64,000 bases of DNA from the IMG/VR virus record IMGVR_UViG_3300045988_010208. One strand, written 5' to 3'. Made by a program: the position numbers and the translations under genes. Below are positions 5,800 through 49,917 of this stretch, in pieces; within the stretch, counting starts at the first letter, position 1, and each line of letters begins with the position of its first letter. The notes under the pieces are model-generated. The model was not told the DNA's origin. It worked only from the letters and a program-made list of their open reading frames with translations, and made no database searches. This DNA comes from a virus (taxonomy: Duplodnaviria > Heunggongvirae > Uroviricota > Caudoviricetes).

Positions 5800-6966
5800 A
5801 TGGCAGTAGGTGAAATTCAAATTAGTGCCTTGCCTCAAGCAGCCTTACCAATTGACCTTAGTGATATCTTCCATCTTAAGCAGGGTATTGAGGATAAGAG
5901 ATGCACTCTTGAGCAATTACTTGCTCCACACTCAAGCCTAAGAAATAACCCTCACGGTGTTACTAAAACACAAATTGGTTTAGATAACGTTATCAATGCT
6001 CTTCAGTTAGTTGCTGCAAATAACTTATCAGATGTTACTAATGTCACTGAGGCAAGGGCAAATCTACAGATTATGTCTTCAGAAGAGGTTAATAGCCTTG
6101 TCCAACAGCATATTAATGATAAGAGTAATCCACACAATACAACTAAAGCACAGGTTGGTTTAAGTAATGTTCAGAACTGGACAACATCCAACCTTTATAA
6201 TGAAGATGCAGATAAGTACGCTACAGCAAGAGCAGTAAATAACTTGTACAAGGCTGTTCAGGCTTCTTATCCAGTAGGTACTATCCATCTCTCTATGAAT
6301 CCTGCAAACCCTTCTACATATTTAATTTGTGGAGGTACTTGGGAGTTAGTTTCAAGAGGAAGAGCACTTGTAGGTTATGATAGTGCTTCTAGGCCAGTTG
6401 GTAGTAACTTTGGCTCAAGTAGTATTAGTTTATCTAGTAACAACCTACCATCACATAGCCATTCAATCTATCTAACTGGTGGTGGGCATACTCATGGTGC
6501 TACTATTACTATTGATGGCTTTGATTACGGCAATAAGAGCACAAACAGTTTCGATTATGGAACAAAGACCACTAATAGCACTGGTGCTCACACCCACTCA
6601 GTGAGTGGTTCAACAAATACCACAGGTAATCACACACATACTGTAGGTGGTCGTTACGGAGGTGACTCTATTGGTGGTAAACAACGTGTTCAGGTCTCAG
6701 GGACTGCTCAGGTTTCCAGTGTAGCTGGTGACCACTCACACACTATTAGCGGTTCAACAAATACCACAGGCAATCACCAACACACTGTTGCAATTGGTGC
6801 TCACACGCATACTGTTGCAATTGGTGCTCATACCCATAAAGGCACAGTAACTTTGCAGTCATCTGAGCATACTCACTCAGGTACTACAGGCACTACAGGT
6901 GCTGGTCAAGCATTTAGCGTTGAACAACCATCCTTTGTGGTTTATGTATGGCAAAGAACCGCTTAA
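5800..6966 (+). CDS. tail fiber protein with His-rich HxH repeat tip domain
   Basis: 388 aa; C-terminal region carries repeated GAHTHSVSG / GNHTHTVGG / AIGAHTHTV motifs like the metal-coordinating HxH repeats of T4-type fiber tips; C-terminal ~140 aa paralogous to that of the next gene. Confidence 0.6.
   Translation: MAVGEIQISALPQAALPIDLSDIFHLKQGIEDKRCTLEQLLAPHSSLRNNPHGVTKTQIGLDNVINALQLVAANNLSDVTNVTEARANLQIMSSEEVNSLVQQHINDKSNPHNTTKAQVGLSNVQNWTTSNLYNEDADKYATARAVNNLYKAVQASYPVGTIHLSMNPANPSTYLICGGTWELVSRGRALVGYDSASRPVGSNFGSSSISLSSNNLPSHSHSIYLTGGGHTHGATITIDGFDYGNKSTNSFDYGTKTTNSTGAHTHSVSGSTNTTGNHTHTVGGRYGGDSIGGKQRVQVSGTAQVSSVAGDHSHTISGSTNTTGNHQHTVAIGAHTHTVAIGAHTHKGTVTLQSSEHTHSGTTGTTGAGQAFSVEQPSFVVYVWQRTA
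6550..6960 (+). repeat. paralogous tail-fiber tip segment (copy 1)
   Basis: DNA and protein similarity to 9010-9365, e.g. shared GGTGCTCACACCCACTCAGTGAGTGGTTC and GGTGGTCGTTA.GG.GGTGACTCTAT.GGTGGTAAACAACGTGTTCAGGT. Confidence 0.8.
6784..6837 (+). repeat. 27-bp tandem duplication inside fiber tip coding sequence
   Basis: ACTGTTGCAATTGGTGCTCACACGCAT followed immediately by ACTGTTGCAATTGGTGCTCATACCCAT (encodes TVAIGAHTH twice). Confidence 0.8.
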
Positions 6967-7017: not shown

Positions 7018-9369
7018 ATGGCAGATTACAAGTTGAGTGAATTAAACTCAATCGATACAATCCGTTCAGATGACCTTCTTCATGTCAGGGTTAAAAAGAG
7101 ACCTGAAATGCTGGGTGATGAAGACCGTCGAATGACCTATCAAGATTTCTTAGCATCTTTTAAGCTTGAAAGATTTGTTCAGATTGCTGGTAGCACTATG
7201 ACGGGTGACTTAGGGATTGTTAAGTTACTTTATGGTGGTAAGGCAGTCTTTGACCCTACAGGCTCTTCTGAGATTAATATTGGGGATGTTTTAAAGACTT
7301 TTAAAATTAACGCAAATGGTCTTAAACTAACTATTGCAGATGCTTCGAGGTCAGCAACTGTTTATCATACTCTGAATAAACCAAGTCCTAATGAACTTGG
7401 GATGAGAACTAATGAAGAGAATGATGCAAGATATGCAAAACTGGCTAACTCGAATACGTTTAAAGCCAAGCAAACTATTACATCGAATGGTGAGATTTTA
7501 ACGCTAGTCACCCCTGCGGAGGCGAGTTCAGCGTACTGTGCCCTTGTAGGTAGAGACGCGAGTAATGAAAAGAATTGGGCTATTGGGAACCTAATTAGAG
7601 GCAGCTTTGATGTTCAAATCAAGAGTAGACAAGGTTCCATCCTCACTCTAGGTACAACTGTAACGATTAATAAGACCCTTGCTGTTGTTGGTCAGGTCAA
7701 ACCTTCTGACTTCTCTAACTTAGATGCTAGATACTTTACTCAGACAGTTGCTAATCAGAGATTTGCACAGTTAGCTGGCAATAACACATTTAGTGGTTCT
7801 AATATTTTCACTAATAATTTTGTTATTAAGAAGAATGCTAATGCTATTACTATTCAAAATGTAGATACAACTACGGCTTTGTATATCCAAGCAAGAAAAT
7901 CAGATGGAGCTAATAAGTGGTACATTGGCAATGACGGTGATGAGAGTATTGTAAACATCTATAACTATTTAGCAAAAACACAAATCTCACTAGGCAACAC
8001 CATTACTATGAGCAAAACAGTCCAAATTGGTGGTCAAGTTCAACCTTCTGATTGGACTAACATTGACTCTAGATATATTCCGGCAGCAACATTAAGTACA
8101 ATTGCAAGAACTAATGCACAAAATACTTTTAATGGTGTACAGAAAGTTGTTACTGATGCTGAAGCCCTAATTGTGAAAAACTATACTCAGAACAGACCAT
8201 TGTATATCCGTGGTGTGGACACTGCTAATGTGTCAAGGTGGTGGGTAGGTGTTGGTGGGGCAGATACTAATGATGTAACACTAAATAACAGTTTTTCTGG
8301 CACTCAGTTAGTTTTAGGTAACTCATCTGCAAGTATCAATAAGACATTAACCCTAGCAGGGCAGATTCAACCCTCAGATTTCTCTAACTTAGATGCCAGA
8401 TACTTTACTCAATCAGCAGCTAATCAGGAATTTATGTATGCAGGTTCCACAGGTACTGGTAGTGAAGTAGGTGATAGTGATGGCATTGCTTGGAATGCTA
8501 AAACTGGTCTGTATAATGTTACAGGTTATGGTGGAGGCTCAACACAACTTGTTTTCCAAATGTATCAGGGTGCAAGCTCTACTCCCTCTGCTCAATTAAA
8601 ATTCAACTACAGGAATGGGGGTTTTTGGTATAGGTCATCAAGGGATGGTTTTGGTTTTGAAGAGGACTTCACACAAATTTATACAGAGAAGTATAAACCA
8701 ACTCCTTCAGCTATTGGTGCATACACTAAAGCAGAGACTGACCAGAAGATTGCAGAAGCGATTAGTGACTCTACAGACCTGAATAAAATCTATCCAGTAG
8801 GGATTGTGACATGGTTTAACAGTAATGTTAACCCTAATACAGCACTCCCTGGGTTAACTTGGACGTATCTGAACAATGGTGTTGGTAGAACTATTAGAAT
8901 TGCAGCAGCAAACGGTTCAGATGTTGCTACAACTGGTGGTTCAGATTCTGTAACGTTATCTGTTGGTAACTTACCTTCACACACTCATAGCTTCTCTGCG
9001 ACTACTTCATCATTTGACTATGGTACTAAAACCACTAACACTACTGGTGCTCACACCCACTCAGTGAGTGGTTCTACTAACAACACTGGTGCTCATACAC
9101 ATACAGTTGGTGGTCGTTATGGTGGTGACTCTATCGGTGGTAAACAACGTGTTCAGGTATCTGGTACAGAACAGGTATCTAGCTCTGCTGGTGCTCACGC
9201 TCACACTGTATCTGGTACTGCTGCCTCTAACGGAAACCATGCTCACACTGTTGGTATTGGTGCTCACAGTCATACAGTTAGTGGTAACACTGGTGGTACA
9301 GGTTCTGGTTCAGCATTTAGTGTAACTAACCAGTTCTATAAGCTGATGGCTTGGGTAAGAACTGCTTAA
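7018..9369 (+). CDS. long tail fiber protein (receptor-binding) with internal repeats and HxH tip domain
   Basis: 783 aa; three internal ~40-aa repeats (..GQVKPSDFSNLDARYFTQ..); C-terminus LPSHTHSFS..GAHTHSVSG..GNHAHTVGIGAHSHTVSG paralogous to 5800-6966. Confidence 0.65.
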   Translation: MADYKLSELNSIDTIRSDDLLHVRVKKRPEMLGDEDRRMTYQDFLASFKLERFVQIAGSTMTGDLGIVKLLYGGKAVFDPTGSSEINIGDVLKTFKINANGLKLTIADASRSATVYHTLNKPSPNELGMRTNEENDARYAKLANSNTFKAKQTITSNGEILTLVTPAEASSAYCALVGRDASNEKNWAIGNLIRGSFDVQIKSRQGSILTLGTTVTINKTLAVVGQVKPSDFSNLDARYFTQTVANQRFAQLAGNNTFSGSNIFTNNFVIKKNANAITIQNVDTTTALYIQARKSDGANKWYIGNDGDESIVNIYNYLAKTQISLGNTITMSKTVQIGGQVQPSDWTNIDSRYIPAATLSTIARTNAQNTFNGVQKVVTDAEALIVKNYTQNRPLYIRGVDTANVSRWWVGVGGADTNDVTLNNSFSGTQLVLGNSSASINKTLTLAGQIQPSDFSNLDARYFTQSAANQEFMYAGSTGTGSEVGDSDGIAWNAKTGLYNVTGYGGGSTQLVFQMYQGASSTPSAQLKFNYRNGGFWYRSSRDGFGFEEDFTQIYTEKYKPTPSAIGAYTKAETDQKIAEAISDSTDLNKIYPVGIVTWFNSNVNPNTALPGLTWTYLNNGVGRTIRIAAANGSDVATTGGSDSVTLSVGNLPSHTHSFSATTSSFDYGTKTTNTTGAHTHSVSGSTNNTGAHTHTVGGRYGGDSIGGKQRVQVSGTEQVSSSAGAHAHTVSGTAASNGNHAHTVGIGAHSHTVSGNTGGTGSGSAFSVTNQFYKLMAWVRTA
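9010..9365 (+). repeat. paralogous tail-fiber tip segment (copy 2)
   Basis: See 6550-6960; about 85% identical stretches at nucleotide level. Confidence 0.8.
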
Positions 9370-10021: not shown

Positions 10022-10055
10022 AGGCTCCTTTTTACGGGAGCCTTTTTTGTTTTAT
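10022..10055. terminator. intrinsic terminator between convergent genes
   Basis: Hairpin GGCTCC-TTTTTAC-GGGAGCC followed by TTTTTTGTTTTATTT; sits between the 3' ends of 9644-10015 (+) and thyA (-). Confidence 0.7.
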
Positions 10056-10951
10056 TTACCTACTGACAAAGGTGCTTCAATCTTTCCTGCATGTTGGTAA
10101 TTGTAAATGCCACCAATAAAATCACTTGCAGTGAGATGTTTTAAGTCACTTAAAGTGTTAAGTGGGATACCAATCTCAAAAGTTGGTGCATGGAACTCTT
10201 CATTGTTCATCAGTTCATAAACCTGCTTCATATGATTCTGATAAATCTGAGTATCTCCAAAGACACCTATCAAGTACCGTGGAGTGTATCCAGTCATCTT
10301 ACAAAGAACTTCCAGAATAAAACCATAAGATGCAATATTAAACGGGAGTCCTAAAAAGGTGTCTACTGAACGCTGATACCATTGTAAGTCAACTTCACCC
10401 TCGTTAGTGATATAAATCTGAAACAGAACATGACAAGGTGCTAAAGCCATCGAGTTGGATGCAATATCTGCTGCATTCCAAGCATTAACAAGCATGTAGC
10501 GGTCTGTAATATCACCCTTCATCTTCGTTACTAAGGTCTCTAACTGGTCTACAACACAACCATTATGACCTTCAAAGTTTCTCCACTGAACCCCGTAGAT
10601 TCTCCCACCTGCGTCATCTAACCAGTCTTGTTCAGAAGAATAATTAGAGCTTAACCAGCGTTTAAAATCATCTGACCAGATAGTCCAGCGTTCTCCATCA
10701 TTTTCATCCCAAGTGCGGTAACGGAGTTCACCCAGTTTATTCTCACCATTCAGGAACCATAAAGCTTCCCCAATAACTTGCCGTGTAAACACCTGTTTAG
10801 ATGTTAAGAGCGGGAAACCAGTTCGCATATCAAAACGAAACTGAGGTGGAGCAAAAGCAGAGATAACATCTCCAGTTCGTGTAGTACGCAGTTCACCAAC
10901 GGATAAAACATGGTTCAAGATATTTTTGTAACTTGTATCTGCTTGTGACAT
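10052..10951 (-). CDS. thyA: thymidylate synthase
   Basis: 299 aa; ThyA signatures: RTGFPLLTSKQVF, EALWFLNG, active-site ALAPCHVLFQ. Confidence 0.92.
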   Translation of the reverse strand: MSQADTSYKNILNHVLSVGELRTTRTGDVISAFAPPQFRFDMRTGFPLLTSKQVFTRQVIGEALWFLNGENKLGELRYRTWDENDGERWTIWSDDFKRWLSSNYSSEQDWLDDAGGRIYGVQWRNFEGHNGCVVDQLETLVTKMKGDITDRYMLVNAWNAADIASNSMALAPCHVLFQIYITNEGEVDLQWYQRSVDTFLGLPFNIASYGFILEVLCKMTGYTPRYLIGVFGDTQIYQNHMKQVYELMNNEEFHAPTFEIGIPLNTLSDLKHLTASDFIGGIYNYQHAGKIEAPLSVGK

Positions 10952-10952
10952 A

Positions 10953-11498
10953 TCAAAAGTGTCCTTTTACTTGTGGAACATAAATTTCAAAAGTTGCTTT
11001 ACCATCCTCTGATGGTTTTGACTGTACCTTTGTAAACACACGGTTATCATACAGCTTCTCAAAGAAGTTTTCAAAAGGTAAATGCACAGTGGCCTCTTCA
11101 GTAACTTTATGGAAAACAGTATGGAACACCACACTAGCATACGGTAAAGCATTGACAAGGATACCTGCACCACCAATTACAAAGACATCTTCATCAATAG
11201 AGCTATCAAGATACTTCAAAAATGCTCCAAATGACTCTTTACTGGCTTTAGCATACATTACATCATCTTTGCCAAAGTCTATGCCTAAGTATGGTACAGA
11301 ATTTGTTAAGACGAGGTTTGCACGTTCTGGTAATGGTTTACTACCCAGAGTCTTAAAAGTCTCATTACCCATCACTACTAAATTATCTTTAGTGAGTCTC
11401 TTAAACTCTTGCATATCCTGTTTATGTCGAGGCCACGGCATACCAGTTGGAGTACCAAACTCCCCATTTTCACCACTTGCAAAGATTAATTTAATCAT
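10953..11498 (-). CDS. dihydrofolate reductase
   Basis: 181 aa; N-terminal IFASGENGEFG..MPWP....D...FK..T....VVMGNETFKTLG pattern of DHFR; adjacent to thyA as in T4 (frd-td). Confidence 0.85.
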   Translation of the reverse strand: MIKLIFASGENGEFGTPTGMPWPRHKQDMQEFKRLTKDNLVVMGNETFKTLGSKPLPERANLVLTNSVPYLGIDFGKDDVMYAKASKESFGAFLKYLDSSIDEDVFVIGGAGILVNALPYASVVFHTVFHKVTEEATVHLPFENFFEKLYDNRVFTKVQSKPSEDGKATFEIYVPQVKGHF

Positions 11499-14472: not shown

Positions 14473-15078
<606 letters not shown>

Positions 15079-15229
15079 TTAGTTGATTGTTAAGTTGTTT
15101 GTAAAGAACCCTCAACAGAAGACTCTTTAGAAACTTGGTAGATTTTTAACGTGGCTACTACCATCCACCCATACCAGACCAGACCAGACCAAGCCAAGCC
15201 CAACACTACCGAACCGGACACGACCAGAC

Positions 15230-15308
15230 CTTATTAAAAGACCCTGTTTAAAGACCTTTTAAAAAGGTAAGTCTCATTTTAATGTAGCTGAGACTAACTA
15301 CCCACACC
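15230..15308. repeat. intergenic repeat module A, copy 2
   Basis: Near-identical copy of 13716-13794 in a different intergenic region. Confidence 0.8.
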
Positions 15309-15359
15309 AAACCATAGCATACATCGCATTACCGGACAGAACCATACTTTACCAAACAT

Positions 15360-15395
15360 CACTTAAAAACCCTCTTAGAAGACTCTTAAGTGATG
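15360..15395. repeat. intergenic repeat module B, copy 2 (partial)
   Basis: CACTTAAAAACCCTCTTAGAAGACTCTTAAGTGATG. Confidence 0.7.
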
Positions 15396-15461
15396 CTGGT
15401 GAGTACCCGTTGGTTTATGCTGCTCAGTATACTCACCAAATTTTCTATGTCAACAACTTTT

Positions 15462-15608
15462 TATATAAAAGTCCTGATAGCTATATGTGTTACAAAACAG
15501 AAGATTGTGAACAAGACACCCATTGCAAAGGATGTGTTCAAAAGTTTACTTGTTATGTAAGACAATACAAAGACAACTAATGCAAACAGAATGATTGTGC
15601 TTAACATA
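15462..15608 (-). CDS. possible small hydrophobic (two-helix) membrane peptide, about 48 aa
   Basis: Not in the ORF track (<60 aa). My translation: MLSTIILFALVVFVLSYITSKLLNTSFAMGVLFTIFCFVTHIAIRTFI; starts a few nt after the ligase stop. No strong RBS; coordinates approximate. Confidence 0.25.
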
Positions 15609-15610
15609 GT

Positions 15611-16750
15611 TTACTCATAATCCCTAATAACTAGCCCAACAGGAAACTGTAAAGAACCCTTACGAGTCATCTTCTGGAACTGTACTGTTAAAGGTTTCCC
15701 GATAAACTCTTCAGGGTGCTCAGCAAGATACTGTTTCTTCTCATGAGTAGTCTTCCATGAAACATCTACAAAGACGTTAGGGAGAGTCTCTACAACGAAC
15801 TTACCATGACCACGTTTATCGGTCTTGACACCAGTCACTTTAAACTCTTCAGTGTGCATCTTCTTGTGCTTAATCAAGAAGTATGAACGGTGACCACACT
15901 CGTAGAAAGATTCTTCAGAGATTGAGCGGTACATTGCACCTTCAAACTTAGCTTCAACCCACTTATCATGAGCTTCATCAAACTCTTCCCAAGAGTTAAC
16001 ACGACGAGACTTAACAGGGACAACTCTACAGCCGTCTCTAAAGTCATTCAATGGTGAAGTCTCAATAATATCTCTACGCTCAGGCCAAGTCTTAGTGCTG
16101 TCACAGATATCATACCAGTAAAACTTGAGTAAATGTCGGTCAGGATTGTCTTCATTTTTAATCATGGAGACAATATCTTCTAAATCCAACCCATGAGCAT
16201 AGATTTCACCATCAAATTCATCAACGTCTTTATGGAGCCTCAACATTGCCATAATGTCAGGTATTAGTTCAGTAGGAATTTTATAAATAGTGTTCTCACG
16301 AGAATATGCTGTAAATACACTGCCAATACTTAAGTGTCTTGAAATTCTACAACGTACACCATCCAGTTTTGGTTGAGCGTCAGCAGGGAACTTCAGATAC
16401 TTTGCATGGCTAACCTTTGCAGCATCATGAGCAAGCTGTACACCTACCTTCTCAGTATTCTGTGCAGACTCTTTTGTGTAAGCATAACCTTTACGGTCAA
16501 CTTGCTTTTTATACTTAGCAGCAACTTCAAAGAGAGCTTGCTGTTCAGCGTTACGCTCATTCTTTTTACCGATGTTTTTAGGTTCTGCTGTGTACTCTTC
16601 AAACATCATCTTGCCATTTTCTTTACCGTAGGTTGTGATAACTTTATCACCTACAGCAACACATGACCAGACGTTAAAGGAGCCATCTTTATTTTGTTTG
16701 TACAGAATTGTCATTTTATTCCTCTGAGTGATACCAAGTATTGCAAGCAT
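15611..16750 (-). CDS. ATP-dependent DNA ligase
   Basis: 379-aa ORF with adenylation motif I KxDG (PKLDGVRC). True start is probably the internal Met of ..NKMTILYKQ.., which has an AGAGGA-type RBS and would remove the overlap with 16716-16907. Confidence 0.6.
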   Translation of the reverse strand: MLAILGITQRNKMTILYKQNKDGSFNVWSCVAVGDKVITTYGKENGKMMFEEYTAEPKNIGKKNERNAEQQALFEVAAKYKKQVDRKGYAYTKESAQNTEKVGVQLAHDAAKVSHAKYLKFPADAQPKLDGVRCRISRHLSIGSVFTAYSRENTIYKIPTELIPDIMAMLRLHKDVDEFDGEIYAHGLDLEDIVSMIKNEDNPDRHLLKFYWYDICDSTKTWPERRDIIETSPLNDFRDGCRVVPVKSRRVNSWEEFDEAHDKWVEAKFEGAMYRSISEESFYECGHRSYFLIKHKKMHTEEFKVTGVKTDKRGHGKFVVETLPNVFVDVSWKTTHEKKQYLAEHPEEFIGKPLTVQFQKMTRKGSLQFPVGLVIRDYE

Positions 16751-16907
16751 TACATGCGTAAAGCTCTAAGTCATTTTTATCCGGTTTATGAAAACAATTT
16801 GCTCCGCAGTGGCAACGGAATGGCTTTCCACCAACTGTTAGGGTGAATGATTGAATCTTCCCATCAGGAGTTCGTACAGCATTTTTGTGCTTGTCTTCTT
16901 TGTTCAT
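16716..16907 (-). CDS. small zinc-ribbon protein
   Basis: 63 aa; CHCGANC ... CNACN cysteine pairs. Confidence 0.4.
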   Translation of the reverse strand: MNKEDKHKNAVRTPDGKIQSFTLTVGGKPFRCHCGANCFHKPDKNDLELYACNACNTWYHSEE

Positions 16908-17209
16908 TTTCTCTTACCACCAATCTCTACGTCGATAACTTGAACATCGCCAGCAACATCAAACTTATGAATGATGCTTTCCACAGTGTAAGTCCAACCA
17001 TCAATGCGAACCAACTCGCCTTCTCGTGGGACGATTGGATTACGTTGAGCTACGGTTGTGGTGGAGTGAACAACATCATAACGATAGGTATAGTTTACTA
17101 ATACTTCCATCGTGAAAACCTCACTCAATAACCGTGGTATGTGATTGACCATTTTTTCCATAGCTATAAGATGTTGTTGTTTGAGAGTTTGGACATCTGA
17201 CAACAACAA
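16904..17209 (-). CDS. hypothetical protein
   Basis: 101-aa ORF, start overlapping neighbour stop. Confidence 0.35.
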   Translation of the reverse strand: MLLSDVQTLKQQHLIAMEKMVNHIPRLLSEVFTMEVLVNYTYRYDVVHSTTTVAQRNPIVPREGELVRIDGWTYTVESIIHKFDVAGDVQVIDVEIGGKRK

Positions 17210-17357
17210 TATCCCTACTTATAGCATCACCATGTAACTTGTATACTCTGCAATCTTGCATTTCTGGTGGGAGGCTGTAAGAAGCATTTTTATCTTCATA
17301 AGAAGGGTTGCAGCCAGATAGAAAAATAACACCAAGCGCAATTACTGCTTTCCACAT
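17121..17357 (-). CDS. small lipoprotein (mature about 60 aa)
   Basis: ORF-track ORF 17121-17381 trimmed to internal Met with AGGAGA RBS; signal peptide MWKAVIALGVIFLSGC with lipobox L-S-G-C. Confidence 0.5.
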   Translation of the reverse strand: MWKAVIALGVIFLSGCNPSYEDKNASYSLPPEMQDCRVYKLHGDAISRDIVVVRCPNSQTTTSYSYGKNGQSHTTVIE

Positions 17358-17370
17358 AACACTTCTCCTA

Positions 17371-17616
17371 TTACTGTTCACGATGTTCTACTTCTCTGTA
17401 TGTTCGTCGATAGTTTATAATAAGCTGTGCTAACTCGTTGCTTTTAACATCTGAACGTAGCAGTTGCCAGTCAAAACCTTTACCGACTCTTCCATACAAA
17501 CTAAATAATTTTACTTTGCGTTTCATTTTGGTGTCCCCCCAATACTCAGAGGTCAATACTAATACGTTCGCCCTTAAGGACTCCTGTGCGGTCTCTTGCA
17601 ATCTTACCGTCAACAA
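17371..17616 (-). CDS. hypothetical protein
   Basis: 81-aa ORF in the minus-strand block. Confidence 0.3.
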   Translation of the reverse strand: MLTVRLQETAQESLRANVLVLTSEYWGDTKMKRKVKLFSLYGRVGKGFDWQLLRSDVKSNELAQLIINYRRTYREVEHREQ

Positions 17617-17773
17617 TAAGGATGTGTGCAGTCCTTAAAGAGTCATGATTAAAACCTTTTACGAACTTGCTAGGCATGACTACAATGGACATCTCCTGAA
17701 TTAACTCTGGAGTGTAGCAGTTATCATGAAGTTGCTGAATAACGTCTGCAAGTGTCATTTTTGATGTCTCCAA
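17546..17773 (-). CDS. hypothetical protein
   Basis: 75-aa ORF; overlaps the downstream ORF in another frame. Confidence 0.3.
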   Translation of the reverse strand: METSKMTLADVIQQLHDNCYTPELIQEMSIVVMPSKFVKGFNHDSLRTAHILIVDGKIARDRTGVLKGERISIDL

Positions 17774-17964
17774 TATTCAATATCTACAAGCTCTTGTGCA
17801 ATGCTTTTCAGATTACCTTTCAAGAAAACCTTCTCAGAACCTGAAAGAGATGAATTGTCAATTAACCTGTTCATTCTCTCAAACAACTTCTGCTTACGAT
17901 TTTTGATAGTCTCCTTTGAAGCACCTTTCATCATCGCTGCATGGGTTCTTCCACGATGGCTCAT
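17755..17964 (-). CDS. hypothetical protein
   Basis: 69-aa ORF, basic N-terminus. Confidence 0.3.
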   Translation of the reverse strand: MSHRGRTHAAMMKGASKETIKNRKQKLFERMNRLIDNSSLSGSEKVFLKGNLKSIAQELVDIEYWRHQK

Positions 17965-18015
17965 AAGCCCTCCTATATAAGATATAGTATAAGGTACTCT
18001 TCCATGAGCACCTTG

Positions 18016-18531
18016 TCAACTTAGTTTTGCAAACTCTCCGTGGAGTTTAATAGCAGCTTCACAGTAAGCTTTATGGGCTTCTTCTTCTGTTGTGTATGTC
18101 CCTATATGTATAGTCTTGCCATTATGGTTAATCTGGGCTATCCACTTACCAGACTTACTTCTACTTGTGCCTTTTAAGTTTTTTGATGTTCTAGGTTGTC
18201 TCCTATTAGACATGTTCTGTTCTTTTGTGGCCTCTCTTAGATTGTCCCAAGCGTTATTCAAACCATCTCCATCTTTGTGGTCAATGTGTTTATCAGGCCA
18301 CTTGCCTGTCATCCAGAACCAAGCAATTCGGTGATTGCCTGTCCTGTATCCTAAAATCTGTGTGTGCATATACACACCAGACCTTGTGCGCTTAATTGCT
18401 CCGGCTGGGCTTCCAATAACCACCCTACTACTGTGTGGAGGTCTGCCAATCCATGTTAAGACCCCTGTTTCGGGGTCATAATCTAACCAAGATTTTAACT
18501 GTTCATGTGTGAATCCACAATCTCTCATCAA
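18016..18531 (-). CDS. HNH homing endonuclease with AP2-like DNA-binding domain
   Basis: 171 aa; HNH motif HIDHKDGDGLNNAWDNLREATKEQN; C-terminal SGKWIAQINHNGKTIHIGTYTTEEEAHKAY resembles AP2 domain; start overlaps the DNA polymerase stop; paralogue of 28096-28620. Confidence 0.8.
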   Translation of the reverse strand: MMRDCGFTHEQLKSWLDYDPETGVLTWIGRPPHSSRVVIGSPAGAIKRTRSGVYMHTQILGYRTGNHRIAWFWMTGKWPDKHIDHKDGDGLNNAWDNLREATKEQNMSNRRQPRTSKNLKGTSRSKSGKWIAQINHNGKTIHIGTYTTEEEAHKAYCEAAIKLHGEFAKLS

Positions 18532-21257
18532 TGCACCTCATACCAGCTCTTACCAACCTTACCTGTGCCAGTTACAAGCGTCTCACTCTTCAAACCTAAA
18601 TTCTTAGATGCCTGACCATACATCCAGTCAGTTATGGCTTTAACTTCTTGAGTCATACTTTCTGGGCATTCCCAACTGTTTTCATCGTGGTATGCCAGCA
18701 AAAGCCTAGCACCGATTGCTGGTTTTCGTCCATTTAATTTTGTCAATCCTTCTTCACATGCTCTTCTACAAGCAAGGTTAATTGCCTCATTTTGAATCTG
18801 AGCCTCTGAACCCATGAGCAAATAATTCAATAACTTATGTGGAGATTTACACCACAACCAAGCTCCAGCAACCTTTACAAAACCCCCTTTAGAGATTGCA
18901 GCAGTCTTACCAAACACCTCTTCAAGTGCCTTTTTAGTTGCTTTGTAGTCAGCTTCCAAGTCATCTAGCAGCTTCTTAATTTTAGGCAAACGAATAAAGT
19001 AAGTCTGTTTAGTCAGCGCACCTTCCTGAGTAGTTGCAGCTTTAATCGTCTTAGCAAACTTCTCATCACCTGCACCGAACAGCAGTGCATAGATACCATT
19101 CTTAGCTTTCTTACGACCTTTGCTAATCTCATGAAGAAGATTCTCATCCTGAGTAGCTCGACAAGTCAAGATGTCCTGCTCATCATTCAAGCTAAAGTAA
19201 ATGCTATTCAGTGTATGCGCATCAGTCCCTGAATAGACAACGTACAGGTCATTCTCAGAGTCATAGCGAAGGTACTTATCAATTTCTGGGTTGAGGTACT
19301 CATCAAAGTGTTTGCAGTAATAGCGTCCATCTTCTTGACGAATAAACTCAATCTCTTCTTTACCTTGCGTTACCGCTTTGGTGAAGTCTTTATCACCCAT
19401 AAAGTTACAAAGCAGAACTAGCTGGGCTGAGTTCATATCTACAGAGACAACGTTAGTACCTTCCTCACAAATCCACACTGCCCTCATTGGTTCCCCATAG
19501 ACAGCAGCCCCAGACGGTACGTTTACAATACCATATTGTGTCATACGTCCAGTTGAAGTACCAAACACCATTGCACCAGCACTAAGGCGACCATCAGGAC
19601 GAATCTGGTTCAACCAACCTTTTTCATCATCCTTTGAGTTCTCAATAGTTCTGCGTCGGTGCATCAAAGTATAGTACTTAGCAATCTTCTGTCCAAGCTC
19701 ACCTTCAATCGTATCATAGGATGATTCGGTAAGTTTTGGTGAAGTACGGATTAAGCAAGGCTCAAGCAAATCTGTGTATTTCTTCACAGACCAGTTATGC
19801 TCAATGTACTGGACACCTTCATGTTCAACATAACTCAAACCACACCGCTCAACCATTTCCTGCCACTTAGGATGTTTTGTAATCATCTTTTTATTGTCTT
19901 TGAAACGACAAACTTTGACAGGACGACCATCTGAGTCTTTCTTGTAGTTCCAGTCATCTGGAATCCAACCAACTGATTTCAAGTAGTCTTTAACAACTGC
20001 TACCTGAGTCATACGAGAAACTTCAAACTCAATTGGTGTATACGGTGCATCAATCAAACCTGTGTAGCGACTTGACTCAAGTTCAAAGTGGTTAACAACG
20101 TGACTGTTATAGTACTTCACAGTTTTAACTGTTTTTACTGGCTTCCAGTCTTTGCATTTCTTACCAATCTTTGCGTTCAACTCATTGCAAATTGCACGAG
20201 CATCCTTCATTGCTACAAAGCCTTCCTTGTACTCTTCACCAGTTACAGTGTTGGTTGGTGTATAGCAATTTCTCTTTTCAATGTTAAAAATCTTTGTAGT
20301 TGGCTTACCAAATGGCTTGATTTCATATGTTTGCATCTCACCATTACGTACCTGCTGACGATACTTTGTCTTAGGGTACTTGGTAATTCTTTTCAGTCCA
20401 TCTGCATGACCAAATGTTTCAACATACTCATTCCAAGCTTTTGCAAACTCTTCTCCAGTGACTTTACCTTTGGTCTTAATAGTTGGAGGAAGATGTGGTT
20501 CAACCTCTGAAGCAAGCTCATTAGTCAACTTGTCAAGTTCCTTTACATGGAACTCCATAAGCTCTTTATCAGCTTTCCAACCATTAATAGCTTGTTGACT
20601 CATCCAGAAAGATGTTTCTTTAGCTCGCATGTAGGTTTCATAAGTGTCTATACCACACTTCTTAAGCTTGAGATACTCATTATCAAGTGCCCGTTTAGTT
20701 TTGGCGTTAATACGGATATCTTCTACAACACGAGTGAAGATTTCTGCATTCCACACACCCCAATGTTCAATCTCTGGTTTACGGACACCAACACGAGCAC
20801 CCCATGCAGCCAAGCCATGAGCACCTTTATAACCCTTTGGAGTTGGTCTATCCATCCACTGAACACGAGACTGGATAAGAGAGTCCTGAAAGAAATTACT
20901 CCACGGTTTACACTTTGGATTATCAAAGTTCCATAAATCAGGTGCAATGTGATTGAAAACCCACCAGTCATAACCGAGACCATTATGGATGCAAAGACGT
21001 TTTGCCTTTAACGCAAATTCAACACCTTCACGTAAACCACCTTTGATGTACTTAGTGTACTTGTGACCGAGGATAGGCTCATCTGTAAAGACCCATACAG
21101 GTGGCTCTTCATCGTCAGATTTATAGTCTGCGAAAGCCATTACGTGAACTTTAGTGAACTCAAGGAGTAAACCATCAGTTTCTGTATCACCAACCAAGTG
21201 TAAGTTTTTAAAATCTACGTTTTCCATTTTTACTCCCTCTAAAATCATTAACCTCAT
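18528..21257 (-). CDS. DNA polymerase, family A, with 3'-5' exonuclease domain
   Basis: 909 aa; exo motif VGDTETDG; Pol A motif B RKKAKNGIYALLFGAG; motif C LAYHDENSWE. Confidence 0.9.
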   Translation of the reverse strand: MRLMILEGVKMENVDFKNLHLVGDTETDGLLLEFTKVHVMAFADYKSDDEEPPVWVFTDEPILGHKYTKYIKGGLREGVEFALKAKRLCIHNGLGYDWWVFNHIAPDLWNFDNPKCKPWSNFFQDSLIQSRVQWMDRPTPKGYKGAHGLAAWGARVGVRKPEIEHWGVWNAEIFTRVVEDIRINAKTKRALDNEYLKLKKCGIDTYETYMRAKETSFWMSQQAINGWKADKELMEFHVKELDKLTNELASEVEPHLPPTIKTKGKVTGEEFAKAWNEYVETFGHADGLKRITKYPKTKYRQQVRNGEMQTYEIKPFGKPTTKIFNIEKRNCYTPTNTVTGEEYKEGFVAMKDARAICNELNAKIGKKCKDWKPVKTVKTVKYYNSHVVNHFELESSRYTGLIDAPYTPIEFEVSRMTQVAVVKDYLKSVGWIPDDWNYKKDSDGRPVKVCRFKDNKKMITKHPKWQEMVERCGLSYVEHEGVQYIEHNWSVKKYTDLLEPCLIRTSPKLTESSYDTIEGELGQKIAKYYTLMHRRRTIENSKDDEKGWLNQIRPDGRLSAGAMVFGTSTGRMTQYGIVNVPSGAAVYGEPMRAVWICEEGTNVVSVDMNSAQLVLLCNFMGDKDFTKAVTQGKEEIEFIRQEDGRYYCKHFDEYLNPEIDKYLRYDSENDLYVVYSGTDAHTLNSIYFSLNDEQDILTCRATQDENLLHEISKGRKKAKNGIYALLFGAGDEKFAKTIKAATTQEGALTKQTYFIRLPKIKKLLDDLEADYKATKKALEEVFGKTAAISKGGFVKVAGAWLWCKSPHKLLNYLLMGSEAQIQNEAINLACRRACEEGLTKLNGRKPAIGARLLLAYHDENSWECPESMTQEVKAITDWMYGQASKNLGLKSETLVTGTGKVGKSWYEVH

Positions 21258-44001: not shown

Positions 44002-46368
44002 ATGCGCATGGTAAATGACCACGCAGAAGTGATTAAGAGTTCAACTTCTTTGGAGACATCTCAAGCACAGATTACAATGACACCTGAAATGTTCAGCCTT
44101 CTGAGTTCTGGTGTATACACATTCAAAGAAAGGGCAGTGATTCGTGAACTGTCATGTAATGCAGTAGATGCTCAGAAAGAAGCTGGAAAAGAGAACATCC
44201 CATTCCATGTGCATTTACCTACTCGATTTGAGCCTTACTTTGAAGTCCGTGACTTTGGAACTGGTTTAACCCATGACAAAGTAATGAGTTTGTACCTGAA
44301 CTACGGGGCTTCTACGAAGAATGACTCTAATGATTACATTGGTGCAATGGGTATCGGCTCAAAATCACCATTTGCAATTGCTCAGTCATTCACAGTGTCT
44401 AGCTATGTTGATGGTGTTGTTAATAAGTACTCTGTTTACCTTGAGAATGGTATCCCTCAAGTAACTAAGCTTACTACTAACCCAACAAATGAACCTAATG
44501 GCTTAGCTGTACGTGTGGCAGTTGCTGACCACCGTATTTCAAAGTTCTTTGAAGAGGCTGGTCACGTATACTCATACTTTGCTGTAAAACCAGAAAGTAA
44601 CATTGTATATGATGATGTGTTAGCAGATATGAACGTCATTGCTCGTGAAGAAGGTGTTTATGATGCCATGATTCATAAGCAAAGCTGGCGTTCTAGTGGT
44701 AACAGGACAGAGTTTAATGTGGTGATGGGTAATATTGCCTATCCAGTGAACATGGAAGCATTACTTGGTGATGATTTCTTCAAAGTCTTGCCAGAGTTTT
44801 TCCGTAGGAGCGTAGACCTTGTAAACATTTACATGCCTATTGGTTCAGTCGCTATTGCAGCTTCTCGTGAAGCATTGCAGATGAATGATACGACAAAAAA
44901 TGTTATCATTGAGGCTACTAAAAAGATAACTGAAGCAATTACAAAGGATGTTATCAAGAAAGTTAATAGCCAACCTACACTCATGGATGCTGCACAGGCT
45001 TATGCAGAGTTACGTTTGAACTCACGAGAAATGTTTAATGCTGTGTGTCCAAAGCTAGAGTGGGGAGGTGTTAAGCTTGATTCTCTGGAAGAAGAATTGC
45101 TAAACATTCGTCGTGGGATTATCTACGCAGAAGACGGCTCAGTCATTTATGAACGTGACGGTAAAGGTAATATCAAGGTTGATAGGAACGGGAACAATAT
45201 CCCTAAAGTGGATTATCTTTATAATCCAGTTGCTTATGTCAAGTTCAACTCTTTAGAGAGTAAGATTCGTGCAACAGCACTTTCCTACACTCAAGAGGCA
45301 AGTATGTTCAATATCTTTGGTGCAATGCGTAAAAGCCAAATTGAACAGTTTTTGTTCGTGATAAATGACCGTCGTAATAAAAATGGCACTGAGAAGACTG
45401 TAGGCCGCAATCAGATTCTGCGTGGTGCATGTCGAGATTACGCCAATGAGTCAAATCTGTTTCACAGATACAATGGTATTGTGTTTGTATTCTCGACTGA
45501 AAAAGAGTTAGATGATTTAATCAACCTGCATAAACTTGATAAAAGTTTGTTAAAGATTGTGAAAATGTCTGATAAGGAGCACCATTACCAGCGTAAAGAA
45601 GCTGTCAGGGGTGTTGTAAAACTCTGGAAAGCAGTTCCGGCAGAAGGTGTAGCCTCCTACAAAGAGGTGTCAGAAGACTTAGACACAATTGAAGAACCTC
45701 AGCTTTACATTAAGGCAGTTGGTGACACAGTTGATGGCGAATGTTTTTGCTCATCTCCAGAAGATGTAGCTAAGTCAGTTGCTAATGTTATAGGGAAGAC
45801 AGTCTATGTTTTCCGAAAAGCAAATTGGAAAAAGATACCAGAAGACTGGATTGAAGTAGATGAGAAGCTCTTGAACGACAGCTTAACTGATGTTCATTGG
45901 ATTAATCATAACAGGTATATGACACGCATCTACATGAATGGTGTTCTTGACCTTACAAGCAGTTGGATTATTGCCAGAAACTTTACATTCAATAACAGGA
46001 AGATTTCTCGTGGCTATTGCTATTCACGAGATACTAGCAAAACTATCTTCCTAGAAGGTAATGAAGAGGCTGTAGAGGCTATGTTCGGTAAAATCCAGTA
46101 TGTTGCTGCACCGTTTGCATACACTTACACTATTAGTAGATTGCAAACTTTGAAAGAATGCCTTGACAATGATACAAAACTGTACAAGAAAATTAAGAAA
46201 GCTGGTGACCGCATGGTCATTAAGGTGACAAACTACCTTTCAAAAAGAAAACAAGAGAACTTCTTGCTTTCTCATTTAGATTGGAATAAAGTGTCACCCA
46301 TCGAAGTGAGTAAGTTCTTAGGCTTTGATGTGAAGTGTGTTCCAGAAGGGACTACAATTTACGATTAA
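44002..46368 (+). CDS. rIIA: rIIA-like protein with N-terminal GHKL-type ATPase motifs
   Basis: 788 aa; N-terminal RELSCNAVDAQ, RDFGTGL and GAMGIGSKSPF boxes as in T4 rIIA / GHKL ATPases. Confidence 0.65.
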   Translation: MRMVNDHAEVIKSSTSLETSQAQITMTPEMFSLLSSGVYTFKERAVIRELSCNAVDAQKEAGKENIPFHVHLPTRFEPYFEVRDFGTGLTHDKVMSLYLNYGASTKNDSNDYIGAMGIGSKSPFAIAQSFTVSSYVDGVVNKYSVYLENGIPQVTKLTTNPTNEPNGLAVRVAVADHRISKFFEEAGHVYSYFAVKPESNIVYDDVLADMNVIAREEGVYDAMIHKQSWRSSGNRTEFNVVMGNIAYPVNMEALLGDDFFKVLPEFFRRSVDLVNIYMPIGSVAIAASREALQMNDTTKNVIIEATKKITEAITKDVIKKVNSQPTLMDAAQAYAELRLNSREMFNAVCPKLEWGGVKLDSLEEELLNIRRGIIYAEDGSVIYERDGKGNIKVDRNGNNIPKVDYLYNPVAYVKFNSLESKIRATALSYTQEASMFNIFGAMRKSQIEQFLFVINDRRNKNGTEKTVGRNQILRGACRDYANESNLFHRYNGIVFVFSTEKELDDLINLHKLDKSLLKIVKMSDKEHHYQRKEAVRGVVKLWKAVPAEGVASYKEVSEDLDTIEEPQLYIKAVGDTVDGECFCSSPEDVAKSVANVIGKTVYVFRKANWKKIPEDWIEVDEKLLNDSLTDVHWINHNRYMTRIYMNGVLDLTSSWIIARNFTFNNRKISRGYCYSRDTSKTIFLEGNEEAVEAMFGKIQYVAAPFAYTYTISRLQTLKECLDNDTKLYKKIKKAGDRMVIKVTNYLSKRKQENFLLSHLDWNKVSPIEVSKFLGFDVKCVPEGTTIYD

Positions 46369-49406: not shown

Positions 49407-49754
49407 ATGACATTTAAAGAGTTCTGTCAAGCCACTTTCATAATTGTTTTCTTAGTTGGGGCAGGTGTCTGGGGAGGATACTCTTACAGAGACTATCAAG
49501 TTGCTGAAACTGAGCTAAACAACCAAAAGCTCATAAGTGTTGCTAAAGATGCTTATCAGGAAGGATTAGTCACACTGAGCACCAATTACAAAAATGATTT
49601 GAAAGATGTGCTTGCTAAGAATAAGCATACAAAAGAGGTACTAACATATGAAAAAACTAAGCCAGAGTTTTATAATGTTTGTGTTACTGATAACTATGTC
49701 AGGGTGTTCAACGAACAAAGTGAGCAGTACATTCAAAAACTCCCAAGTAAGTGA
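49407..49754 (+). CDS. candidate i-spanin (inner-membrane anchored periplasmic protein)
   Basis: 115 aa; N-terminal TM helix FIIVFLVGAGVWGGY then charged helical region; 3' end overlapped out of frame by a lipoprotein ORF. Confidence 0.4.
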   Translation: MTFKEFCQATFIIVFLVGAGVWGGYSYRDYQVAETELNNQKLISVAKDAYQEGLVTLSTNYKNDLKDVLAKNKHTKEVLTYEKTKPEFYNVCVTDNYVRVFNEQSEQYIQKLPSK

Positions 49755-49917
49755 GAGTGATAAGTACACTCAAGAAGAATCACGGTACATCATCAAAGGC
49801 AACACAGGCAGTGATGTAGCAGCAGCCCTTGAGTTCTATCGTGATGGATTTTACCAGTGCACAATCAAAGCTAATAACCTTATTGATATGATTTTATTAG
49901 GGAATAAGCAGCAATGA
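49648..49917 (+). CDS. candidate o-spanin (outer-membrane lipoprotein)
   Basis: 89 aa; signal peptide MKKLSQSFIMFVLLITMSGC with lipobox-like MSGC; starts inside 49407-49754 in another frame. Confidence 0.4.
   Translation: MKKLSQSFIMFVLLITMSGCSTNKVSSTFKNSQVSESDKYTQEESRYIIKGNTGSDVAAALEFYRDGFYQCTIKANNLIDMILLGNKQQ

Follow-up and report, generated by a model that had tools for sequence, protein, structure and literature searches.

A DUF4884-family lipoprotein gene in the replication block of a Felix O1-like phage, with a possible receptor-independent role in the envelope of the infected cell

Gene and product

The window analysed here, a whole stretch of 64,000 nucleotides (IMG/VR virus record IMGVR_UViG_3300045988_010208), belongs to a Felix O1-like myovirus (Ounavirinae, Felixounavirus), and the subject of this report is a small lipoprotein gene on its minus strand, 17357..17121. 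The gene encodes a 78-aa prolipoprotein that begins MWKAVIALGVIFLSGC and continues with NPSY...; the full product from the internal ATG at 17357 is MWKAVIALGVIFLSGCNPSYEDKNASYSLPPEMQDCRVYKLHGDAISRDIVVVRCPNSQTTTSYSYGKNGQSHTTVIE. The open reading frame (ORF) delimited mechanically around it is slightly longer (17381..17121, minus strand, GTG start, 86 aa), and a preliminary description of the same DNA had proposed the internal start together with an AGGAGA ribosome-binding site. Both were found as proposed, with AGGAGA at 17369..17364, 6 nt upstream of the ATG, and the coordinates 17121-17357 given in that description also hold, with the addition that the ORF lies on the minus strand, which had been left unstated. 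At the orthologous loci the AGGAGA is either retained or replaced by GGGGAA or AAGGAA variants, and the exact 78-aa product has been called by public gene callers in 294 blocks of assemblies.

The lipoprotein gene is under purifying selection. The value of dN/dS is about 0.07 for 21 distinct alleles, and pN/pS in these 21 alleles is 0.16-0.23, alike in the linker, core and tail of the protein. An ortholog was found in 21 of the 21 Felixounavirus-like IMG/VR loci, from a number of which some of the neighbouring small genes are missing. Some relatives carry another N-terminal extension (MNNKVKSCVKAM...), in which the hydrophobic core and the lipobox are retained. The case for the gene is made by this conservation, since a lipobox pattern alone is weak evidence: it is not very rare by chance (0.18 expected per shuffled window), and this, together with the lack of annotation in some GenBank records, is what speaks for a chance ORF or a non-functional remnant. 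However, the purifying selection, the presence of the gene at all orthologous loci and the family-wide conservation of the signal peptide, the cysteines and the core motif stand against such a reading, which is effectively refuted. The ORF very probably represents a real DUF4884 protein, predicted from its sequence to be exported and lipidated.

Export signal and predicted sorting

A lipoprotein signal peptide with the lipobox LSGC and a mature protein of about 60 aa had both been recognized in the preliminary description, and both withstand closer inspection, the mature part being 63 aa long. Residues 6-16 match the PROSITE lipoprotein pattern {DERK}(6)-[LIVMFWSTAG](2)-[LIVMFYSTAGCQ]-[AGS]-C, with the cysteine at position 16. 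The N-terminus, divided as MWK-AVIALGVIF-LSGC, also agrees with a PS51257-type signal (K/R in the n-region, an uncharged h-region, a lipobox of the form [LVI][ASTVI][GAS]C and Cys at position 15-35), having K in the n-region, an uncharged h-region and Cys16. The PROSITE rule is satisfied by two ORFs in the window, compared with 0.18 +/- 0.43 in 60 shuffles, and a looser lipobox scan of the window likewise gave two loci, the lipoprotein ORF and an o-spanin candidate at 49648-49917. The AlphaFold2 (AF2) model has a helix over residues 4-14. Among the homologs, the lipobox is present in all but two of about 190 inspected, the Pfam model LPAM_1 is matched by 19 of 64 family members, and UniProt names several of them 'Lipoprotein'.

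The +2 sorting rule is established for Enterobacteria, in which Asp at +2 is the classical Lol-avoidance signal. Asn17, the +2 residue of the window lipoprotein, predicts sorting to the outer membrane, and the Felixounavirus homologs are likewise C-N (Asn+2). Asp+2 is found in homologs of Asteriusvirus, Certrevirus and Eneladusvirus, all phages of Enterobacteria, such as E. coli phage 121Q (CDAS), Cronobacter phage CR9 (CDNR) and Erwinia/Yersinia jumbo phages (CDGS and CDGK). These homologs have a variant core, VYCPNA, with one extra residue ahead of the second cysteine, and retention in the inner membrane is predicted for them because of the Asp at +2. The members of the DUF4884 family are, by this prediction, seated in either membrane.

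Mature domain

In AF2 models built with the family alignment, the signal peptide is helical and is followed by a small antiparallel sheet of five strands; pLDDT averages 74.6 over the full length and 68.9 in the model of the mature part. In the structure, Cys36 stands before strand 2 and Cys55 after strand 3, and a periplasmic Cys36-Cys55 disulfide is likely. A Foldseek search of the model against the PDB gave no informative match (E at least 3), and the matches in BFVD were other uncharacterised phage lipoproteins only. PADLOC models gave only ThsA at E 0.03, which is noise, and Pfam and NCBIfam scans of the ORF also gave noise only (SIR2_2, E 0.12), with no NCBIfam family.

The DUF4884 family and its distribution

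The phrog_902 hidden Markov model (HMM) matches the lipoprotein at E 1.6e-16 over residues 1-76, and precomputed tables assign PF16225:DUF4884 to the exact 78-aa product, with no weak or faint mark, and to nearly all homologs as well. A local hmmscan of Pfam-A found no PF16225 match for any of 64 family members, and so the Pfam assignment comes from the precomputed tables (PF16225.11); the local Pfam-A copy may lack the PF16225 model or have an altered version of it. The window ORF is an ordinary member of an already known, uncharacterised family (Pfam PF16225, PHROG phrog_902). Like the other members, from which nothing distinguishes it, it is small, has a lipobox and a VVRCPNS core, and carries two invariant cysteines in addition to that of the lipobox.

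A profile search of 1.84 billion representative proteins gave 1,211 family clusters at 50% identity (E <= 1e-3), and the length was 71-154 aa in all 150 family clusters among the matches listed. The columns C16, P30, C36, V53, C55 and P56 are invariant in 64 family sequences, and D35, V52, R54, S58, T60, G67 and K68 are conserved in at least 90% of them; the family consensus is C-(linker)-Y.LP..L.DC.IY.L-(loop)-VVRCPNS.TSTTY..GK. The window protein carries the signature of the family, namely the lipobox, D-C ... VVRCPNS.T.T..GK and three cysteines. Exact VVRCPNS occurs in 129 of about 190 homologs, in most of which the lipid-bearing Cys is 33-38 residues from the core motif.

By tblastn, the DUF4884 family was found in 585 phage records, the lineages being Felixounaviruses, Aeromonas Plateaulakevirus, the T4-like Acinetobacter phage Acj61, Acinetobacter Saclayvirus, Certrevirus (Vequintavirinae) and the jumbo Asteriusvirus and Eneladusvirus, together with about 295 Vibrio phages (about 114 kb), and in every phage record of these lineages the product is a hypothetical protein. 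In the Vibrio phages the homolog lies between the genes for an origin-binding protein and a helicase, with an NAD-dependent ligase gene about 3 kb farther along. The phages that bear homologs are large, virulent and unrelated to one another, with hosts in Escherichia, Salmonella, Vibrio, Aeromonas, Acinetobacter and Erwinia, and in every lineage examined the homolog is found amid early or replication genes.

The core motif (screened as VVRCPNSxT[ST] in species genomes and as VVRCPNSxT in IMG/VR) was confirmed at only one locus in 185,579 species genomes, compared with 38 loci in IMG/VR. The single locus in a bacterial genome is that of Hylemonella gracilis (L009), with an uninformative context. 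No DNA match to the lipoprotein gene was found in 5,426 complete E. coli genomes, and one partial match lies on an Acinetobacter plasmid. In short, the phage family is essentially confined to virulent phages. Its members are near-universally lipoproteins, predicted to sit in either membrane, and the gene is unlinked to the receptor; these four points are new over the earlier record of the family. PF16225 also takes in chromosomal proteins of Bacteroides, for example BT_3183 (PMC8931616). Membership of T1-like phages, considered on the basis of a 'DUF4884' annotation in the Henu8 paper (PMC12210894), is not claimed here; the family HMM has no member in the related phage pSf-1.

Genomic context

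Bases 15000-19000 of the window match 260 phage records at 80-95% identity, mostly Felixounaviruses of Escherichia, Salmonella and Shigella. The GenBank entry GU169904.1, 'Staphylococcus phage SA1' (147 kb), holds Felix O1-like sequence about 90% identical to this region, which suggests that it is a mixed or chimeric deposit.

The preliminary description had placed the lipoprotein in a block of small genes between ligase and DNA polymerase, and this is the arrangement found, all on the minus strand. The order on that strand is DNA polymerase, HNH/AP2 homing endonuclease, three small ORFs, the lipoprotein, two small ORFs, ligase and a 48-aa protein, and the block beyond the latter holds further ORFs, DHFR and thymidylate synthase (Table 1). 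The neighbours of the lipoprotein gene encode phrog_2381 and phrog_4427 proteins, to which no function is assigned. The phrog_4427 gene is the next one and starts at ATG 17110, 10 nt past the lipoprotein stop codon; its conserved 68-aa product covers profile positions 1-68 of 68, and a 101-aa TTG ORF (16904-17209, minus strand), overlapping the lipoprotein gene at its 3' end, over-extends this product. In at least one GenBank record, MN850610 (L001, 3412-3714), the long overlapping ORF is annotated and the lipoprotein gene is omitted.

Some related genomes have the HNH/AP2 gene and others (e.g. L006) lack it, and the small ORFs 16716-16907 and 17371-17526 are variably present among relatives. 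The 63-aa product of 16716-16907 is probably a zinc ribbon, and the 48-aa ORF downstream of ligase is a candidate for a second envelope-directed small protein of the same transcription block.

Because the genes of the block abut or overlap, the lipoprotein gene is likely to be co-transcribed with the replication genes. A scan for promoters and terminators was at background, and only the hairpin 14018-14003 looks like a plausible operon end. No neighbouring gene family was found to recur in a partner search of 25 loci of different lineages, so that the lipoprotein gene travels, and presumably works, alone.

The spanins of the phage are encoded far from this block, on the plus strand. The o-spanin candidate, an 89-aa ORF, has its best match in phrog_4180 and a weak match to phrog_456, 'Rz-like spanin'.

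Table 1. Positions of the lipoprotein gene, its parts and other features named in the text; rows marked L090, L091 and L005 refer to related loci, all others to the window
Feature	Position	Strand	Basis or remark
Coding sequence of the 78-aa prolipoprotein, DUF4884 / phrog_902 member	17121..17357	-	ORF list, phrog_902, precomputed PF16225, dN/dS
Stop codon of the lipoprotein gene	17121-17123	-	
Shine-Dalgarno-like AGGAGA, 6 nt before ATG	17364..17369	-	Read from sequence
Signal peptide (predicted), residues 1-15 (MWKAVIALGVIFLSG): Lys3 in n-region, 10-residue hydrophobic core	17313..17357	-	Sequence, AF2 helix, LPAM_1
Lipobox L13-S14-G15-C16; Cys16 is the predicted lipidated residue 1 of the mature protein	17310..17321	-	PROSITE pattern
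Mature 63-aa domain: variable linker of about 13 residues and five-strand antiparallel beta sheet (predicted)	17124..17312	-	AF2 models
Cys36 of the invariant D-C motif; predicted disulfide partner Cys55	17250..17252	-	Invariant in alignments A1, A2, A4
Family signature V52-V53-R54-C55-P56-N57-S58 (VVRCPNS)	17184..17204	-	Conservation
DNA polymerase	18528-21257	-	
HNH/AP2 homing endonuclease	18016-18531	-	Between DNA polymerase and small-gene block
63-aa protein, CxC...CxxC (RCHCGANCFH...YACNAC)	16716-16907	-	phrog_5768 match; between lipoprotein block and ligase
ATP-dependent ligase	15611-16750	-	
48-aa ORF with two hydrophobic stretches (two transmembrane segments), directly downstream of ligase	15461-15607	-	phrog_22006, full length, E 7e-31
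DHFR	10953-11498	-	
Thymidylate synthase	10052-10951	-	
Tail-fibre genes	5800-6966 and 7018-9369	+	
i-spanin, 115 aa	49407-49754	+	phrog_1152, E 1e-41
o-spanin candidate, 89-aa lipoprotein ORF (MKKLSQSFIMFVLLITMSGC...)	49648-49917	+	Starts inside i-spanin, other frame
Asp+2 homolog, 121Q gp175 (CDAS)	L090 2462-2713		
Asp+2 homolog, CR9_116 (CDNR)	L091 2450-2719		
Asp+2 homolog (CDGS)	L005 3962-4204		

Discussion

The lipoprotein probably alters the envelope of the infected cell, and as its function we tentatively propose receptor-independent exclusion or protection of the envelope. The protein would be made with the replication genes, ahead of the late genes, and exported by Sec; Lgt, LspA and Lnt would add the lipid at Cys16 and cleave the precursor there. 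Its disulfide-stabilised 63-aa beta-sheet domain would then project into the periplasm, tethered by a linker of about 13 residues. Using the invariant D-C / VVRCPNS.T.T..GK surface, it would act by itself on a target conserved across Gram-negative hosts and not on the variable receptor of the phage. Candidates for this target are peptidoglycan itself, a soluble periplasmic, peptidoglycan-associated or envelope-spanning component, or a conserved class of enzymes such as cell-wall hydrolases. The benefit would most likely be a refractory envelope, either through post-adsorption exclusion of incoming genomes or through protection against lysis from without.

That the target may be conserved and independent of the receptor is suggested by the presence of the same core in about 1,211 clusters and at least six host genera, by the lack of co-variation with the fibres and by the identical protein in phages of Salmonella and E. 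coli. That it may be reachable from either membrane is suggested by Asn+2 in the Felixounaviruses and Asp+2 in other homologs. Together with the restriction to virulent phages and the near-universal lipoprotein signal, a gene unlinked to the receptor and a prediction for either membrane make a conserved target in the periplasm the hypothesis of choice in place of receptor masking.

The logic proposed would be closer to that of T4 Spackle/Imm than to that of T5 Llp. T4 Sp is a periplasmic inhibitor of the gp5 tail lysozyme. Sp and Imm are made early by a virulent phage and act in the envelope once adsorption has taken place, whatever the receptor (PMC7677548). Three isolated neighbourhoods hint at envelope and exclusion functions: in Acinetobacter phage Acj61 (L003, 3986-4576) the homolog is directly upstream of spackle; in a freshwater jumbo-phage contig (L087, 1552-1779 and 6001-6339) an Imm_superinfect gene lies 4.2 kb from the homolog; and in Acinetobacter phage Aci02-2 (L092, 1245-2749) a phage PspA/IM30 gene lies two genes upstream of it. 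Apart from the post-adsorption, receptor-independent logic proposed and the adjoining genes in Acj61, a single case, the systems differ: there is no sequence relation, Sp is soluble and not a lipoprotein, and Imm is an integral membrane protein. Jackhmmer searches, one seeded with Acj61 Sp and one with an Imm-like protein, gave no match among all ORFs of the window and 29 related loci.

Several points weigh against exclusion or envelope protection as proposed. The timing of expression is read from gene order alone, the promoter and terminator scan being not above background. The AF2 models are of only moderate confidence, and the best match in a profile search of PDB sequences had E 1.1 (a signal-peptide-like match to HCMV UL131A). 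The literature search found no paper on DUF4884 function and no characterised member. Each of the neighbourhood links to Sp, Imm and PspA was seen once and does not recur across loci. The Asp+2 homologs are just 34-45% identical to the window protein and could have diverged in function. A conserved target is, moreover, equally compatible with roles that have nothing to do with exclusion, such as counter-defence, host takeover or toxin immunity.

The role suggested in the preliminary description was blocking of the phage's own receptor in the manner of T5 Llp. An Llp/Cor-like lipoprotein of lytic conversion would bind the periplasmic face of the outer-membrane receptor used by its own phage and switch it off allosterically, so that there is no superinfection and no progeny is lost on cell debris. 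T5 Llp is attached as a lipoprotein to the outer membrane on its periplasmic side; it binds the FhuA plug and causes two extracellular loops to close over the site where pb5 binds (PMC9586334). In the T5 annotation, llp abuts oad/pb5, the receptor-binding gene, and in pSf-1 a Cor-like lipoprotein ORF (45529-45759) is about 1 kb from a large tail-protein gene. The window protein resembles T5 Llp and the T1/phi80-like Cor (phrog_1119) in being a small, periplasm-facing lipoprotein of a virulent phage, with about 60 aa in the mature part and an intramolecular cysteine pair (for Llp, PMC9586334 and the T5 annotation). Its Asn+2 predicts outer-membrane placement in the window phage, its expression before lysis is plausible, and among relatives it is somewhat more variable than ligase (60-100% versus 85-99%). 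However, homology of the mature domain, adjacency to a receptor-binding gene and co-variation with the fibres are all absent. The full-length hhalign comparison with Llp gives a probability of 74%, from an alignment mainly of the signal peptides, and with mature parts only the probability is 1.7%, that is, no detectable homology, so that homology to Llp was rejected once the signal peptides had been removed. The PHROGs are also different (phrog_1119 for Llp and phrog_902 for the window protein), and a distance of 7.7 kb, with more than 12 genes, separates the lipoprotein gene from those of the tail fibres, which are on the opposite strand. In a co-variation test covering the long fibre in 15 genomes, the identity of the lipoprotein followed that of the fibre C-terminus with rho 0.60, no better than that of polymerase or thymidylate synthase (rho 0.70), which indicates shared ancestry. 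Within the close Felixounavirus clade, rho was 0.14 (p 0.3), and for pairs with identical mature lipoproteins the identity of the fibre C-terminal regions ranged over 57-100% (median 65%). The Salmonella (Infantis) phage vB_Si_DR094 and the Escherichia phage Tribble have a 100% identical protein, and the conserved core is common to phages of Vibrio, Aeromonas, Acinetobacter, Erwinia and Escherichia, whose receptors are different. The Felixounavirus Bas63 is dependent on lipopolysaccharide (LPS) and has hypervariable fibre tips (PMC12609058); by this literature the group to which the window phage belongs depends on LPS, and not on an outer-membrane protein such as a TonB-dependent transporter. 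LPS dependence counts against masking because a periplasm-facing lipoprotein cannot directly cover LPS of the outer leaflet. The Asp+2 variants in phages of Enterobacteria count against it as well, since from the inner membrane, for which they are predicted, the periplasmic face of an outer-membrane receptor would be out of reach on a linker of about 13 residues. Llp-style receptor masking is weakly supported, and we regard it as improbable here. What stands of the earlier idea is a role in the envelope, possibly including superinfection exclusion, which is reasonable, whereas masking of the phage's own receptor found no support.

A part in lysis, as an Rz1-like o-spanin or a lipoprotein regulator of lysis timing, is very improbable. 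Like Rz1-type o-spanins, the window protein is a small, predicted outer-membrane lipoprotein in a phage of a Gram-negative host, and a few family members show weak matches to spanin and lysis models (phrog_456, E 1.7e-5, for the Hylemonella homolog; LysC and Lysis_col, E about 0.01), which cover the signal-peptide region. Unlike them, it has no i-spanin partner; neither i-spanin, holin nor endolysin adjoins its gene, which lies in the replication block, and the predicted product is a folded beta sheet rather than a proline-rich extended peptide. The canonical overlapped spanin pair is encoded elsewhere, 49407-49754 and 49648-49917, and with this true pair at 49407-49917 the o-spanin reading was rejected. 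Rather unlikely, in our judgement, is a counter-defence or host-takeover effector that inhibits a conserved periplasmic or envelope function by which the host curtails infection, for example an envelope-stress sensor, a periplasmic nuclease, protease or autolysin, or the envelope part of an anti-phage system. The conservation of the core across hosts, a gene that travels alone, its position with early, host-takeover-type genes in each of the lineages examined and the restriction to virulent phages all suit such an effector, and predicted anchoring to either membrane would suit a soluble or envelope-spanning target. However, no PADLOC model was matched beyond noise, no known anti-defence protein of such a kind turned up, and neither a recurrent partner gene nor a target was identified; this reading also overlaps with exclusion or envelope protection. 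The same overlap applies to part of another reading, in which the lipoprotein would confer immunity-like protection against toxins that act on the periplasm from outside (type VI amidases or muramidases, colicins and tail-associated lysins, the last being the overlapping case) and would allow the infected cell to survive up to burst. Small, disulfide-bonded beta proteins that are tethered to the membrane and have one strongly conserved loop are common among immunity proteins of the periplasm and inhibitors of lysozyme, such as MliC, PliC and Ivy, and the DUF4884 family has such an invariant patch. The resemblance is of type only, with no similarity in fold or sequence to any solved inhibitor or immunity protein, and we consider such protection decidedly improbable. 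The remaining probability belongs to something outside the readings listed here.

Conclusions

Felix O1-like phages are widely used in typing, biocontrol and therapy, and a gene near-universal among them is labelled 'hypothetical' or, in some records, has been missed. The DUF4884 family may be a pan-phage class of effectors, so far overlooked, that act in the periplasm on one conserved component of the Gram-negative envelope, independently of the receptor and from either membrane; we hold this wider idea to be conceivable, if on the unlikely side. Were it true, superinfection exclusion, envelope protection or counter-defence would have a new general mechanism, common to Felix O1-like, T5-like (Vibrio), T4-like, Vequintavirinae and jumbo phages. 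A family that is so large, nearly restricted to virulent phages and conserved among phages with differing receptors probably points to one conserved vulnerability or checkpoint of the Gram-negative envelope. Identification of its partner could uncover a receptor-independent mechanism of exclusion or host takeover, which would be relevant to the design of phage cocktails, through cross-exclusion among therapeutic phages, and to envelope biology.

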